From assembly GCF_025370725.1 (NCBI RefSeq), contig NZ_JAMXEZ010000006.1: DNA of 10,583 nucleotides, one strand, 5' to 3'. Positions 2,547 to 9,763 of the stretch are shown here, in pieces. The DNA comes from Laspinema olomoucense D3c. Its GTDB lineage: Bacteria; Cyanobacteriota; Cyanobacteriia; Cyanobacteriales; Laspinemataceae. Made by a program: the position numbers and the translations under genes. Below the pieces are notes generated by a model, which saw nothing but the letters and a program-made list of their open reading frames with translations, was not told where the DNA came from and made no database searches. The stretch's first letter is position 1. Each line of letters opens with the position of its first letter.

Positions 2547-2716
2547 ACCCTATCCCTCCACCACTGCACCTATTTTACTGAAGGTTCATCACCTTGGACA
2601 CGATTTGTCAGCAAAAAGTGGGTACGAACAGCGCTATCCGGATTCATGAATTTCACCGCAACGGACGGGAGCCATTAGAATAGAAACGTGAATCTGACTT
2701 AACCGGAGTGTGTGAC
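2547..2716. promoter_or_regulatory. Divergent intergenic region of 170 bp between the NLR-like gene (-) and the small-protein/protease operon (+). It presumably carries both promoters and both ribosome-binding sites.
   Basis: No ORF in this stretch, and it is AT-richer than its flanks. GGAGG precedes the minus-strand ATG at 2546. GGAG at 2705-2708 lies 8 nt before the plus-strand ATG at 2717. No -10/-35 pair could be called with confidence. Confidence 0.3.
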
Positions 2717-2932
2717 ATGGTGCCATCGGAATTAATCTCAACCTTGAGAGCGCTGAGTCGTTCAGATCAGTTCTATATCATGCAGATTCTGCTCTCAGAA
2801 TTAGCCCAGCAGGAACCTACTCTGATTCAGTCTGAGCAATCTTATCCAGTGTGGTCGCCTTATGGTGCGGATGAGGCAGCAGATACAATGTTAAAAGTGC
2901 TACAGGAGTCTAAATCTCAAGATGATGGGTAA
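2717..2932 (+). CDS. Small (71 aa) acidic, predicted all-helical protein of unknown function. It is the first gene of a two-gene cassette and has an antitoxin/adaptor-like flavour.
   Basis: ATG at 2717 with GGAG 8 nt upstream; the ORF track instead starts at an upstream GTG at 2708. Translation: MVPSELISTLRALSRSDQFYIMQILLSELAQQEPTLIQSEQSYPVWSPYGADEAADTMLKVLQESKSQDDG. The stop TAA at 2930-2932 overlaps the downstream start within ATGATGGGTAA, indicating translational coupling. GC is about 45%, well below the flanking genes. Confidence 0.55.
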   Translation: MVPSELISTLRALSRSDQFYIMQILLSELAQQEPTLIQSEQSYPVWSPYGADEAADTMLKVLQESKSQDDG

Positions 2933-3353
2933 TCCTGAACGATATCCATTTTTATCGGGTAATCCGGCATTAGGTGAAGCTAGTTTTTGTCCGTATCTGC
3001 CTTTGACCTTGTTTTACCAGGAGAGTTCACTCAAAACCTCCGGGCTGTTAGATACTGGGGCAAGTGTAAATGTGCTGCCATATTTGACAGGCATTGAGCT
3101 GGGATACGAATGGGAGAGACAAACAACTGCTCTGAGCCTGACTGGTAATTTAGCTCAGTATGAGGCGCGTGTTGTACTTGCTCAAGGGATCATTGGTCAG
3201 TTTGAGCCTGTGCAACTGGTATTTGCCTGGACACAAGCTACAAACGTACCGCTCATTCTGGGGCAGGTAAACTTTTTTATGGAGTTCGATGTCTGTTTCT
3301 ATCGTTCCCAGTTAGAGTTTGCAGTCAGCCCTAAAACTCCTTCCTCCGAGTAG
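2922..3353 (+). CDS. Retropepsin-like (clan AA) aspartic protease, single domain, 143 aa.
   Basis: Catalytic-site signature hydrophobic-hydrophobic-D-T-G-A-S in SGLLDTGASVNVLPY. A second conserved retropepsin motif (hh-G-x-x-hh, as in IIGRNLL) appears in PLILGQVNFFMEF. The size fits a dimeric retropepsin fold. The start overlaps the stop of the upstream small ORF. The gene is low-GC with AT-rich third codon positions. Confidence 0.75.
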   Translation: MMGNPERYPFLSGNPALGEASFCPYLPLTLFYQESSLKTSGLLDTGASVNVLPYLTGIELGYEWERQTTALSLTGNLAQYEARVVLAQGIIGQFEPVQLVFAWTQATNVPLILGQVNFFMEFDVCFYRSQLEFAVSPKTPSSE

Positions 3354-5096: not shown

Positions 5097-5130
5097 GTTC
5101 ATAGTCACAACTTCAGTCGTTACTATGAAC
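5097..5130. terminator. Inverted repeat between two convergent genes, a possible bidirectional terminator or RNA structure.
   Basis: gttcatagt (5097-5105) and actatgaac (5122-5130) are exact reverse complements, giving a 9-bp stem with a 16-nt loop. The repeat sits between the TAA of the oxidoreductase (5069-5071) and the TAG of the minus-strand GST (5123-5125), and its right arm overlaps that stop. There is no clear U-tract. Confidence 0.25.
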
Positions 5131-6094
5131 TAAGAGAATGGCTTAAAACCTCGCGATGGTGGGGCTCCTGTAAGTTGGCGATAGTTGGTCCTAATGGAAT
5201 AATTCCCCCGGGATTTAAGGGGAAGAGATTACCGTAATAGTCTCGTTTAATACTATCAAGATTACAAGTGTCTGCTACTCCTGGGAGTTGATAGATATCC
5301 CGGAGATAGGGTCCGAGGTTTTGATAGTCCTGGATGCGGCGTTTATTGCATTTAAAGAGTCCGTGATAAACAATATCAAAACGAAATAATGTGGTAAATA
5401 GCCGCACATCGGCTAGGGTTAGTTTGTCTCCGCATAAGTATCGATTAGTCGCCAAGACTGCATCGATTTCATCTAAAGTATTAAACAGTTCCGTGCAGGC
5501 GGTGTTGTATGCGGTTTGACTTTGAGCAAATCCACAGCGATAGACGCCATTGTTAATGGCAGGGTAAATTTTATCGTTCCAGTATTCTATTTTGTCTCGC
5601 AAGGGTTCGGGATATAAATCCAGTTCTGGATGAGTGCTAAATTTATTAAATTCTGAATTTAGCATGATGATAATTTCCGCACTTTCATTGTTAACAATGG
5701 TCTGGGTTTGGGTATCAAATAGGACCGGAACGGTGCAGCGTCCTTGATATCCGGGACGGGCGATCGCATACAATTCCGGGAGGGTTTGACAGCCGTATTC
5801 GGGTTCATCCAGGACCCAGATTCCGGCATCGGGAGAGGGGGAGACAATGGCAACGGAAATGGCTGATTCTAATCCTTTGAGCGATCGCACCACCAGGGTC
5901 CGATGCGCCCAAGGGCAACCCAATCCCACATACAGGCGATACCGTTCTTTGGCCGGGGGATAGGGGTTTTCGGGTTGGGTTCCGATGGAATTTCTAAACT
6001 CGCTGATGGGACGAATGTATTCTCCAGTTTGATTACGCGGGGCGAGTTTAGACATCATCAGTTGCCATAGGCTCGTCCAGACAAATTTGCCCAT
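5123..6094 (-). CDS. Xi-class glutathione S-transferase / glutathionyl-hydroquinone reductase (YqjG/ECM4-like).
   Basis: The diagnostic Cys-Pro-Trp-Ala active-site motif is present in RYRLYVGLGCPWAHRTLVVRSLKGLE. The N-terminus MGKFVWTSLWQL...SEFRNSIG resembles E. coli YqjG (MGQLIDGVWHDTW...SAFRNW). I place the start at the ATG at 6092-6094, which gives 323 aa, close to the 328 aa of YqjG. The ORF track instead extends the ORF to 6241 by adding an unlikely Lys/Pro-rich 49-aa leader. Confidence 0.85.
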   Translation of the reverse strand: MGKFVWTSLWQLMMSKLAPRNQTGEYIRPISEFRNSIGTQPENPYPPAKERYRLYVGLGCPWAHRTLVVRSLKGLESAISVAIVSPSPDAGIWVLDEPEYGCQTLPELYAIARPGYQGRCTVPVLFDTQTQTIVNNESAEIIIMLNSEFNKFSTHPELDLYPEPLRDKIEYWNDKIYPAINNGVYRCGFAQSQTAYNTACTELFNTLDEIDAVLATNRYLCGDKLTLADVRLFTTLFRFDIVYHGLFKCNKRRIQDYQNLGPYLRDIYQLPGVADTCNLDSIKRDYYGNLFPLNPGGIIPLGPTIANLQEPHHREVLSHSLSS

Positions 6095-6260
6095 TTTAAT
6101 AATAACTTTGGAGGGCAGTTTTTTCCCTTTTTTCGGGGGAGTATTGGTTTGGTTGGAAGGAGTTTCTAAAGACATAATCAATGGGGTGAAGGGGATAAAC
6201 TCATAAAAAATATTTCTCGTCTTACAAGTTGAGTGATGCACAGGCGAGGGCCTGGTTATT

Positions 6261-6791
6261 TTAGTCTGGTAATTGTTGTTTCAAGGAAGAAATAATCTCA
6301 GCATCTAGTTTGAGTTTTACCTCGATTAAGCGGGTGTTATCTCGTAAAATTAAGGTGTGATTGTCTTCTACAAAAATTTCTGGTTCTTGCAAAGTCAAGG
6401 TTTGATATTTCAAGGCAGCGAGTCCGATCTGCATGACGAGGGTGGGTTGGGATTGGGGATAAATGTAGAGTTGCTGCCGTTTGGGGTCGAGTTGCAGTTG
6501 TCTGACGGTGGTATTGCGTTCGTCTGGCATTCCGGGTTTTGTCCAATAGAGGGTAATGCCGCGTATATCGGGGTTGGCGATCGCAAAGGTTTCGTCAAAG
6601 CGTTGGGGTTCCCAATCCAATTCTCGAACATCGCCGTTTCCCGGAAGGATACGCTGGCGCAAGATGATCTCTTTGCCGTTGAGGTTGCGCCACCATTGCC
6701 GGATTGTCTCGAAATTTTCAACCATCTCGGGATTGCTATTCCCAGAGTGCCAGGTGATGAATTGCACGATCGCCCTCCTAATTGCTATCAA
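6261..6791 (-). CDS. Hypothetical protein, 176 aa, with no motif I can recognise.
   Basis: The ORF has balanced, protein-like composition (MIAIRRAIVQFITWHSGNSNPEMVENFETIRQWW...). It is on the same strand as the GST and 20 bp upstream of it. The overlapping plus-strand ORF 6357..6794 is less protein-like. The alternative start M23 (MVENFE...) cannot be excluded. Confidence 0.55.
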   Translation of the reverse strand: MIAIRRAIVQFITWHSGNSNPEMVENFETIRQWWRNLNGKEIILRQRILPGNGDVRELDWEPQRFDETFAIANPDIRGITLYWTKPGMPDERNTTVRQLQLDPKRQQLYIYPQSQPTLVMQIGLAALKYQTLTLQEPEIFVEDNHTLILRDNTRLIEVKLKLDAEIISSLKQQLPD

Positions 6792-7864: not shown

Positions 7865-9433
7865 CTACTCCCGTTCCAAAATTCTGACCATTCCTTTGGC
7901 ACTGCCACTGATGAGAAGTTGTCCATTTGGACTGTAAACTAAGGACATCACGGCCCCACTTTCTTCCGTTAACGTGCAGAGTAATTTACCTGTGGGTAAA
8001 TGCCAGATTTTGACCGTCCCATCGGCGCTGCCTGTGGCAAAGCTGTTCCCATCTGGGGCGAGGGCGACTGCGGTTACGGGTCCTAAATGGGCACTCAGAC
8101 TCCACAGCAGTTCACCCGTTTCCAAATTCCAGAGTTGAATACTGCCGTCGCCACTGCCGCCGATGAGGAGTTGTTGGGGAGAGATGACGATCGCTTCTAC
8201 CGCCTCTAAACTGCCATTGAGGATCGAAATCGGCTGTTTGGTTTGGAACTGCCACAGGGTAATCGTACCGTCCCCACCGCCTCGGGCGAGAATTTGACCA
8301 TCGGGGGAAATAGCGAGGGAAAAGATGGGTCCGGTATAGTCCGTGAGGGTATCAATTAATTCAGCAGTGGACAAATCCCACAATTTAATCGTCTCGTCAA
8401 AACTGCCACTGACGAGGGTTTTGCCATCAGGGGCGATCGCCAAGGCGCGGACGGAACCCCCATGTCCCGTGAGGGTTTCTTTGGGAATTCCTGTGGGGAG
8501 TTCCCAGAGTTTGATGGTTTTATCCCAACTGGCAGAGGCGAGGGTTTTACCATCAGGGGCGATCGCAATGGCAAATACCCCCCGTTTGTGTTCGGCAAGG
8601 ACTTGCAACAGTTCGCCCGTAGTCAGGTTCCACAGTTTAATACTGGTATCAAAACTGCCCGTTGCTAGAATTTGTCCATCAGGGGTAATCCCCAGCGATC
8701 GCACCCAGTCCGCATGGGCGGGCAAACTGTGGCGACAGATCCAATTCTGGGCCGTGGGTTCTGAGGGGGCCGCAAATGACGGCAGGACGACTTTCGACGC
8801 AGGCGGTTTGGATTTGGCGGGTTGAGAAGGGGTTGCGGATGTGGGGGGTTCCGGCATTGCCAGTTCCGGTTGAGGGCGAGGAGAGGGCGACGGGACCACG
8901 ATTTGCGAGGTTAATTGGGAAATTGCCTCCTCCACTCGTTCTAAGCGGTAGGCAAAGGATGAACGATTCAGATAGGCGATCGCATTGCCCAGACTTTCAT
9001 CCAACAAGGCATATTGCTCTTTCAACCCCGCGATTTCCCCCTGAATCTGGGACAAATCCACCGATTCTAATTTCCCCAATCGGGTTTTAAGCAGAGCCAA
9101 TTCATCCGGGGACCCCGTAGCCACAGGGGGGCGGCTGCCTTCCTCTACTTCCACTTGAGGGAGGGGAAGTTGCTTCTGGGCTTCCACCCGTTGGGTGAGC
9201 ATTTCCAGTTCTTCCGCCAATTGGCGATGCTGTCGATTCGTTGTTCCACTGACTCGGCGAGTTTGGTGTTCCAGGCGATACCGGGCGATCGCATTCAAAA
9301 TCAGGGTACTGCAAATCAAAGGGGCGGCTACATAGATAGCCCCATTAAAAAAAACCGCCACTATCGACGCCACCAATGACGCGAACAAGGAAGCATATTC
9401 TGCGGTTTCTAGCCAATGACGGTGATTTGACAT
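7865..9433 (-). CDS. Membrane-anchored WD40 repeat protein: two N-terminal TM helices, a coiled-coil segment, a Pro-rich linker, then a 7-bladed WD40 propeller.
   Basis: I place the start at the ATG at 9431-9433 (MSNHRHW...), with GGAAGGA 5-9 nt upstream. The ORF track instead uses an upstream GTG at 9451. Hydrophobic segments YASLFASLVASIVAVFF and AIYVAAPLICSTLILNAIA are present. Heptad-like stretches are LAEELEMLTQRVEAQKQ and LSQIQGEIAGLKEQYALLDESL. The linker PSPSPRPQPELAMPEPPTSATPSQPAKSKPPASK follows. Seven WD40 units carry GH...(A/S)IAPDG...(L/I)A(S/T)GS...D.(T/S)IKLW signatures. Confidence 0.85.
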   Translation of the reverse strand: MSNHRHWLETAEYASLFASLVASIVAVFFNGAIYVAAPLICSTLILNAIARYRLEHQTRRVSGTTNRQHRQLAEELEMLTQRVEAQKQLPLPQVEVEEGSRPPVATGSPDELALLKTRLGKLESVDLSQIQGEIAGLKEQYALLDESLGNAIAYLNRSSFAYRLERVEEAISQLTSQIVVPSPSPRPQPELAMPEPPTSATPSQPAKSKPPASKVVLPSFAAPSEPTAQNWICRHSLPAHADWVRSLGITPDGQILATGSFDTSIKLWNLTTGELLQVLAEHKRGVFAIAIAPDGKTLASASWDKTIKLWELPTGIPKETLTGHGGSVRALAIAPDGKTLVSGSFDETIKLWDLSTAELIDTLTDYTGPIFSLAISPDGQILARGGGDGTITLWQFQTKQPISILNGSLEAVEAIVISPQQLLIGGSGDGSIQLWNLETGELLWSLSAHLGPVTAVALAPDGNSFATGSADGTVKIWHLPTGKLLCTLTEESGAVMSLVYSPNGQLLISGSAKGMVRILERE

Positions 9434-9723
9434 AGAGTCCTTCCCACCCACCGGAGCCTATATTACAAGTGCCATTTTATCAAAAATCCCCCTAATCTTT
9501 CCATTTTATGGAGAAATGTTGATATAAGGGGGATACAAATTTTTCACTCAAACCCGGCACAATTGAGCCTAAATTGCCCAAAATTTTGTTTTGAGACTAA
9601 TAATGATTCCTCTAGTTTCAACCCTGAGCGTTCGAGCCTTAAAAATAGGGTAAACAATGAACAAAGAGTTTAATCAATCATTTTTTTGTTTTGCCCCTCG
9701 TTATTGACTCAAGCGGCTGTTAT

Positions 9724-9759
9724 CCAGAAAAATCCCCACCCGGAAAGCAGTGGGTGAGG
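9724..9759 (-). terminator. Putative rho-independent terminator of mgtE.
   Basis: On the minus strand, 5 nt after the TAA stop (rc of 9764-9766), the sequence CCTCACCC-actgctttcc-GGGTGGGG forms an 8-bp stem with one U-G wobble and a 10-nt loop. It is followed by ATTTTTCTGG (rc of 9724-9733). Confidence 0.4.
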
Positions 9760-9763
9760 AAGA

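Follow-up and report, generated by a model that had tools for sequence, protein, structure and literature searches.

Results

The window analyzed here is a 10,583-nt stretch of the genome of the cyanobacterium Laspinema olomoucense D3c (contig NZ_JAMXEZ010000006.1). It contains two overlapping genes on the + strand, gene 1 (positions 2717 to 2932), which encodes a small, acidic, helical protein of 71 amino acids, and gene 2 (2925 to 3353), which encodes a retropepsin-fold aspartic protease of 142 amino acids. They correspond to the families PDC-M52A and PDC-M52B of PADLOC. We propose that the protease is an effector and that the small protein is its neutralizing partner.

Layout of the cassette

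A first-pass annotation of this DNA, made from the sequence alone, had placed gene 1 at 2717 to 2932 and the end of gene 2 at 3353, and both hold up in our coordinate check. The junction ATGATGGGTAA that it reported is present as well, but the start of gene 2 differs: the conserved ATG lies at 2925, and the true overlap is the 8-nt sequence ATGGGTAA (2925 to 2932, + strand), in which gene 2 starts within the last codons and the stop codon of gene 1. The ATGnnTAA junction is kept in 76 of 79 related loci (those for which the upstream DNA is present) and in the distant pairs L089, L092, and L093, and the codon at the window's first ATG (2922) is ACC or ATC in most related loci and ATG in a few. 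We therefore take the second ATG as the conserved start, which gives the 142-residue protein, and 2922 (+ strand) as a nonconserved alternative. An upstream GTG at 2708 is an alternative start for gene 1, but the codon that aligns with 2717 is ATG in 76 of the 79 relatives; the three Microcoleus variants start farther upstream. Given the short leader and the overlap, both proteins are expected to arise from one mRNA by coupled translation, which upholds the earlier reading of a compact, cotranscribed, and translationally overlapped module.

Upstream of gene 1, a consensus scan picked out a promoter-like element (TTCACC, an 18-nt spacer, and TAGAAT; 2652 to 2681, + strand). It is followed by a 5′ leader (2682 to 2716, + strand) with a GGAG Shine-Dalgarno sequence at 2705 to 2708, whose consensus is conserved across related loci. 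Taken alone, the promoter scan is not significant (1 site versus 1.7 expected). A TAnAAT- or TATGAT-type hexamer is found 39 to 42 nt upstream of the gene 1 ATG in 27 of 43 nonredundant related loci from different genera, TTCAC-like −35 elements are also recurrent upstream of related cassettes, and the leader consensus anchored at the gene 1 ATG reads ActgGAGtg.TTt.cATGGTT. Conservation of the upstream alignment columns rises from 0.33 at −80 to 0.59 at −10, and mean pairwise identity is higher over positions −45 to −1 (0.37) than over the 45 nt that follow gene 2 (0.29). Because the −10-like hexamer recurs and the leader is more conserved than the downstream DNA, the cassette appears to travel with its own promoter. 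No operator-like inverted repeat was found between the promoter-like element and the start of gene 1, the sole palindrome in the upstream region being a short one farther upstream (2625 to 2640), and there is no intrinsic terminator after gene 2 on the + strand. Neither an Rfam family nor a tRNA was detected in the window.

Strict pairing and natural variants

The first-pass annotation had treated the two genes as one functional module, and their distribution agrees with this. Without exception, gene 1 lies directly upstream of gene 2, both in the 79 related loci and in the 11 divergent pairs that we inspected (L012b, the two pairs of L089, L090, L091, L092, L093, L095, and three Microcoleus loci). 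In L090, L091, and L095, the partner is present though not called as a gene, and L094 is a partial, truncated case. In a mirror-tree comparison, the pairwise distances of gene 1 and gene 2 correlate (r = 0.55).

Two loci carry divergent whole pairs in tandem. The copies in L012 (5743 to 6370) share 39% and 50% identity with the window proteins; those in L089 (3126 to 4429) encode proteins of 70 and 138 amino acids and of 75 and 142 amino acids, with a protease that is 33% identical. Such arrangements suggest paralogous, possibly non-cross-reacting pairs. A natural in-frame fusion (P0308; L088, 432 to 995, from Joint Genome Institute metagenome 3300062794) joins a gene 1-like segment (residues 1 to 65) to the protease from about residue 17 and is consistent with a deletion of about 64 nt across the junction. 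L042, from Oscillatoria sp. HE19RPO, is about 95% identical to the window at the nucleotide level. Its gene 2 is broken by a 164-bp insertion (2145 to 2308 of L042) that resembles a miniature inverted-repeat transposable element, is flanked by a TTAG duplication, separates the Leu-Leu from the Asp-Thr-Gly codons, and adds stop codons. Gene 1 is intact in L042, with 96% identity.

Gene 2, a retropepsin-like protease

Both signatures from which the first-pass annotation had recognized a retroviral-type protease, LLDTGASVNVLP and LILGQVNFF, are present in gene 2, and the D-T/S-G motif is conserved. Among 76 relatives, down to 31% identity, the catalytic D43 of the D43-T-G-A motif (3051 to 3062, + strand) is invariant, and G45, G113, F117, and F118 are at least 90% conserved. 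G113 ends the L-I-L-G motif in the C-terminal half (3252 to 3263, + strand), a hydrophobic-hydrophobic-Gly sequence that we take to be the psi-psi-Gly motif of family A2 retropepsins. The D43-T-G-A motif aligns with the active-site loop of the proteases of human T-cell leukemia virus type 1 (HTLV-1) and Rous sarcoma virus (RSV). An AlphaFold2 model based on the 76 relatives (predicted local distance difference test score [pLDDT], 95.8; predicted template modeling score [pTM], 0.88) has the retropepsin fold, with about 20 extra N-terminal residues that form a strand and a helix, and the closest solved structure is that of the bacterial protease APRc.

The profile matches that had been expected for gene 2 were obtained only in part. 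Pfam Asp_protease_2 (PF13650) matched with an E-value of 2e−4 but below its cutoff (22.3 versus 24.3 bits), the Pfam match to gag-asp_proteas was weak (E = 0.005), and TIGR02281 clan_AA_DTGA failed (12.3 bits versus a cutoff of 57.95); most close homologues carry a precomputed PF13650 match. The assignment as a putative protease thus rests on the predicted fold and the invariant motif and not on the Pfam score. A word-indexed search returned 3,858 homologues of gene 2, and 857 representatives of 50%-identity clusters were found. Nearly all members of the family are free-standing proteins of 135 to 142 amino acids whose named sources are nearly all cyanobacteria. The protein has an isoelectric point (pI) of 4.42. 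Direct reading of the sequences revealed no signal peptide in either protein and no N-terminal hydrophobic segment or anchor in the protease, and for the latter reason we consider it to be probably cytoplasmic. An apparent open reading frame that recurs in 22 of the loci was disregarded because it merely reads gene 2 in antisense.

Gene 1, the small acidic partner

The earlier description of gene 1 as encoding a 71-residue, acidic, helical protein is accurate (pI 4.06; AlphaFold2 helices at residues 4 to 11, 15 to 32, and 51 to 69). Modeled alone, it reaches a pLDDT of only 71 and a pTM of 0.44, and it is therefore probably flexible by itself. A single-sequence search found 209 homologues and a profile search 1,352, all unannotated. 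The guess that gene 1 belongs to a DUF2281-like or other antitoxin family did not bear out, as there was no Pfam or NCBIfam match at E-values up to 10, including none to a DNA-binding domain. Seven further partner sequences, searched in the same way, mostly gave no match, and two gave weak, unrelated, subthreshold ones. There was also no match to PHROG or to any Protein Data Bank (PDB) sequence, and a Foldseek search with the fold returned noise only.

Gene 1 is conserved over its entire length. The motif Y43-P-V-W46-S-P-Y49 (2843 to 2863, + strand), between helices 2 and 3, lies within an 18-residue nonhelical linker of the AlphaFold2 model, and its residues W46, S47, P48, and Y49 are invariant in both homologue alignments. 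We propose this segment as a candidate protease contact site. Divergent partners keep a W-S-P-type motif, degenerate in places, followed by a helix, and distant ones also keep the N-terminal helix EL..L..L....K...V..LL. In the 80-residue Microcoleus variants (L074, 1587 to 1829; L079, 4766 to 5008; and L075), the N-terminal half is replaced by MNLTLNLSPELEQYLLQSAERRGLSVEEV, and the usual WSPY motif and C-terminal helix are retained. The MNLTLNLSPELEQYLLQSAERRGLSVEEV segment gave a subthreshold match to FitA-like_RHH (E = 0.009 to 0.03; 14.7 to 16.4 bits versus a cutoff of 27), a ribbon-helix-helix (RHH) model. As the Microcoleus swap spares the C-terminal half, and the PADLOC model of gene 1 scores best over residues 45 to 69, we infer that this half is the constant part of gene 1 and that it would face the protease.

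Two short similarities between gene 1 and gene 2, SELAQQE (around 2795 to 2815) with GNLAQYEA (around 3144 to 3167) and EAADTMLKV with EARGIILTA, sufficed for MAFFT to align gene 1 homologues onto the protease. They are probably due to chance.

Selection, composition, and descent

The pN/pS ratio is 0.17 for gene 1 and 0.18 for gene 2, and the median ratio of nonsynonymous to synonymous substitution rates (dN/dS) of gene 2 is 0.09, which indicates strong purifying selection on both genes. Gene 1 is thus clearly coding, its ratio being far from the dN/dS of about 1 that the first-pass annotation had named as a sign against it. Across cyanobacterial orders the proteins are 75 to 87% identical, and dS is saturated.

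The cassette has a low G+C content (GC), 45.8% versus 52.0% for the rest of the window, with a GC at third codon positions (GC3) of 0.43. The claim that its composition differs sharply from everything else in the window was overstated, because the glutathione S-transferase (GST)-like gene at 5123 to 6241 has a GC of 45.1% and a GC3 of 0.45, several intergenic stretches are as low, and several 300-nt windows range from 38 to 47%. Over 72 related loci, the GC of the cassette is 45.3 ± 2.5% versus 46.2 ± 5.6% for the flanks; the module is compositionally buffered and partly adapted to its hosts.

In a pattern-limited scan of 185,579 species-representative genomes, at least 250 relatives were confirmed, which is a lower bound, and the distribution across cyanobacteria is patchy. 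A Gloeobacterales copy nests beside Nostoc copies, incongruent with the species tree, and the Caldora copies are split, which argues for some horizontal transfer on top of vertical descent. The pair also occurs on contigs of metagenome-assembled genomes labeled Saccharibacteria, Chloroflexaceae, Acetobacteraceae, and Maritimibacter (L013, L015, L065, and L076). Their gene 2 products share 76 to 82% identity with that of the window, and the pairs group with cyanobacterial copies, L065 within the Nostoc cluster; the labels probably reflect binning contamination and not the true host range.

A catalogued but uncharacterized family

The first-pass annotation knew of no described system built from such a pair. 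PADLOC-DB v2, however, holds hidden Markov models (HMMs) for exactly this pair under the name PDC-M52A/B. Gene 2 matches PDC-M52B with an E-value of 4.9e−50 (166.8 bits; residues 4 to 138 aligned to positions 3 to 137 of 139), and gene 1 matches PDC-M52A with an E-value of 3.5e−6 (25.5 bits), its N-terminal half being more divergent and its best-scoring stretch, residues 45 to 69, corresponding to positions 60 to 84 of 86. Both protein families, their order, and their strand orientation (FAM_01284>>FAM_00696) are the same as in the window. In the study of Payne et al. (bioRxiv 10.1101/2024.01.29.577857), PDC-M52 appears as cassette CAS_00170 (count, 55), one of 145 candidates obtained by "guilt-by-embedding" from cassettes in BREX, DISARM, or type I restriction-modification loci; the text and supplements of that study contain no description of its domains or function. 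The catalogue candidate derives from genes embedded in defense loci, whereas the window copy is not embedded in a recognizable one. Full-text literature searches found no paper that names PDC-M52, none that links a retropepsin-like protease to toxin-antitoxin (TA) systems or an aspartic protease to an antiphage role, and no aspartic-protease toxin; the matches for PF13650 were all eukaryotic or retroelement papers. The pair is an ordinary member of a catalogued, uncharacterized family and is not new as an entity.

Genomic context and neighboring genes

On one side of the window's cassette is a divergently transcribed gene for an NB-ARC/WD40 protein, and on the other is a gene for a flavin adenine dinucleotide-dependent oxidoreductase. 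Flanking genes differ between genera; in Microcystis, for instance, the neighbors are a PIN pair, an IS605-type element, and further small gene pairs. Recurrent neighbors across the loci are Uma2, Unstab_antitox with ParE, XisH/XisI, DUF433, PIN, and PemK. Divergent pairs are found on three cyanobacterial plasmids, among them pP880101 of Rippkaea orientalis PCC 8801, in which the pair lies between HicAB/ParA and transposases, and pC052_A of Nostoc sp. C052. A phage origin was considered and rejected, as none of 50,697 phage records gave a tblastn match and no IMG/VR contig carried the pair.

Other features of the window were recorded in passing. The gene divergent from the cassette (3 to 2549, − strand) runs off the start of the window and encodes an ATPase of the signal transduction ATPases with numerous domains (STAND) class, with NB-ARC, an APAF1-type winged helix, and WD40 repeats. 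The full gene, for 1,327 amino acids, is found in L081 (5645 to 9625, − strand). The DNA of this ATPase gene has a GC of 57.8%, a GC3 of 0.66, and, read on the + strand, a strongly negative GC skew. Another WD40-repeat protein, of 528 amino acids (7865 to 9451, − strand), is without a precomputed Pfam entry, although the repeats are evident from the translation; its N terminus reads as a membrane- or coiled-coil-like region followed by a Pro-rich linker. This gene is separated from a tandem pair of MgtE genes by a low-GC (about 38 to 42%) intergenic region (9452 to 9763). An open reading frame of 176 amino acids (6261 to 6791, − strand; 168 amino acids in the public record), between the GST-like gene and a histone-deacetylase-like gene, is without a recorded Pfam entry and was not matched by any PADLOC model.

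Discussion

What could be the function of a free-standing retropepsin that is always encoded with the same kind of small partner? We propose an inhibitor-protease module that behaves like a TA pair, with gene 1 neutralizing a cytoplasmic protease effector. The cassette (2652 to 3353) would then be a self-contained, horizontally mobile two-gene module. Retropepsins build a single active site as a homodimer, and the gene 2 protein would do the same in the cytoplasm. The gene 1 protein would bind it via the Y-P-V-W-S-P-Y linker and the C-terminal helix and, while bound, keep it inactive, by occupying the cleft as a pseudo-substrate or by preventing dimerization. If gene 1 were depleted or displaced, for which stress, an infecting phage, or loss of the element could be the cause, the protease would cleave cellular or viral proteins and growth would arrest, so that the role of the module could be addiction or an abortive-infection-type defense. 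The first-pass annotation had noted that the layout is that of TA or inhibitor-enzyme pairs, and the variable context, the TA-rich neighborhoods, the plasmid copies beside ParA and HicAB, the tandem duplications, and L042 all fit with this. We give the proposal an even chance of being correct. A role in defense, as in PADLOC's PDC-M52 label, has weaker standing still because the window copy does not lie in a defense island. The more specific claim, that this is the first TA or abortive-infection module with a clan-AA protease effector, held in check by a Trp-Ser-Pro pseudo-substrate linker in a partner with an exchangeable N-terminal half, is possible but falls short of an even chance.

Several points weigh against this proposal. 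Toxicity, inhibition, and the binding of gene 1 to gene 2 are at present proposals. Classic type II autoregulation is unlikely because gene 1 of the window is strongly acidic and has no detectable DNA-binding domain, and the pair is not the usual case of an acidic antitoxin and a basic toxin because the protease is acidic, too. The fusion P0308 is a singleton on a 1,094-bp metagenome contig, and L042 is a single case of a protease knockout with gene 1 retained. Many of the TA-type neighbors come from one syntenic Nostoc locus and are therefore not independent observations. None of the neighbors in the window gave a specific defense-HMM match; their PADLOC matches were limited to HEAT-ARM_XIII, which is repeat-rich and was hit by both WD40-repeat proteins, and one desaturase-like match. 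No copy was found in the phage collections. For a TA or defense system, the proteins are unusually well conserved. Finally, the GC of the cassette follows that of the host (r = 0.71 over the 72 related loci), and the copies group by genus; together, these two findings point to a long vertical residence, which could equally fit a cellular function.

Such a function is at the center of the main rival explanation, in which gene 2 is a cellular regulatory protease that serves host physiology, comparable to RimB or RloA-C, and gene 1 is its dedicated adaptor, activator, or chaperone, which delivers or positions substrates or stabilizes the protease. The very strong purifying selection, with saturated dS and 75 to 87% identity across orders, would be well explained in this way, as would the genus-level clustering with partial GC amelioration, the acidity of both proteins, the chromosomal position of the window cassette beside ordinary metabolic genes, and the absence from phage collections; moreover, bacterial retropepsins with physiological roles exist (PMC11957791, PMC12239564). 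What makes us consider a cellular protease unlikely, if still a serious contender, is that only 250 relatives were confirmed in the genome scan (itself pattern limited and a lower bound), that flanking genes are not conserved between genera, and that there are tandem duplicates and plasmid copies beside ParA, HicAB, and insertion sequence (IS) elements. The incongruent Gloeobacterales copy and L042, a close relative that tolerates a protease-disrupting insertion, are also difficult to reconcile with it.

Gene 1 could alternatively be a precursor or substrate that is processed by the protease, for example at Tyr43-Pro44, to release a signaling or bioactive peptide, much as a maturation protease acts on its leader peptide. 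Type 1 cleavage sites of the retroviral proteases (family A2) have an aromatic residue before Pro, and the near-invariant Q-S/A-Y-P-V-W-S of gene 1, which is cotranslated with gene 2, resembles such a site, with Tyr43-Pro44 located in the nonhelical linker. However, gene 1 is conserved at full length and lacks the hypervariable core that processed peptides typically have, several distant partners have lost Tyr-Pro (VYEVWSPY, MEYWSPF, and KWWSPQ), no modification or export genes accompany the pair in the neighborhoods examined, and neither protein has a signal peptide; we regard a precursor role as improbable. Reversed roles, with a harmful gene 1 that is removed by the protease, or a noncatalytic scaffold in which the retropepsin fold serves for binding, are very improbable. 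Enzymes do act as antitoxins in other TA types, and the Pfam score of the window protein is below the threshold. Against these readings, the 76 relatives all have the catalytic Asp and keep the D-T/S-G and psi-psi-Gly motifs, nothing about an acidic 71-residue protein with a flexible linker resembles a known toxin, and a toxic gene 1 would predict the reverse of what L042 shows, namely, a broken protease gene next to an intact gene 1. The idea that the cassette is a remnant of a retroelement or of a gag-protease gene, suggested by the retroviral-like motif and the weak match to gag-asp_proteas (E = 0.005), or else a chance pair of open reading frames, is effectively refuted. There is no reverse transcriptase, integrase, or long-terminal-repeat-like repeat nearby, the family is abundant, stand-alone, about 140 amino acids in length, and nearly confined to cyanobacteria in its named sources, the closest solved structure is bacterial APRc, and both genes are under purifying selection and have hundreds to thousands of homologues each.

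The pair belongs to an abundant and well-conserved family with a constant small partner that is already flagged in a defense database. To this, our analysis adds corrected gene boundaries, the key invariant residues (D43 in the protease and W46-S-P-Y49 in the partner), the constancy of the partner's C-terminal half, and a set of natural variants (tandem pairs, a fusion, a chimera with an RHH-like segment, and a knockout by insertion). Proteases that act as effectors are being actively studied in bacterial immunity and TA biology, and none of the characterized ones known to us is an aspartic protease. If the inhibitor-protease model is correct, the family would represent a new effector class and a compact, genetically encoded pair of aspartic protease and inhibitor. 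In its more specific form, the model would make this cyanobacteria-wide family a bacterial counterpart of protein inhibitors such as IA3. If the model is wrong, many cyanobacteria carry a strongly selected gene pair that calls for an explanation.

How does the pair compare with known systems? The characterized bacterial retropepsins APRc, RimB, and RloA-C have other architectures and no such partner. APRc (ApRick) of Rickettsia conorii (PDB 5c9b) shares only 14% sequence identity with gene 2; it is membrane anchored and acts on surface proteins (PMC4140852), whereas the window protease is without a hydrophobic anchor. APRc also has no small overlapped partner gene. RimB and RloA-C, Pseudomonas retropepsin-like proteases with physiological roles, belong to another family (DUF785-type) and lack a gene 1-like partner (PMC11957791, PMC12239564); RimB works as part of the RimABK ribosome-modification complex, and RloA-C are secreted enzymes. 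The proteases of human immunodeficiency virus type 1, equine infectious anemia virus, feline immunodeficiency virus, HTLV-1, and RSV and the RVP domain of Ddi1 are excised from polyproteins or are parts of multidomain proteins, whereas gene 2 encodes a free-standing protein of 142 amino acids with a separate, obligate partner gene.

For the proposed inhibition, IA3 offers a mechanistic analogy only. This flexible inhibitor of 68 residues (PDB 1dp5) folds onto the active-site cleft of yeast proteinase A, and gene 1 encodes a protein of similar size that is helical and modeled with low confidence alone; proteinase A is itself among the structural matches of the gene 2 model (rank 29). IA3 is eukaryotic, its target is a two-lobed pepsin-type enzyme that is not encoded adjacent to it, and no homology was detected. 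Type II TA systems differ from the pair in that the common form of gene 1 is without a DNA-binding domain, both proteins are acidic, and the sequence conservation is far above the usual. The pair resembles them in its small upstream gene that overlaps a larger one, the strict co-occurrence of the two, the apparent own promoter, the patchy, mobile distribution that includes plasmids, the TA-rich neighborhoods, and one case of effector decay.

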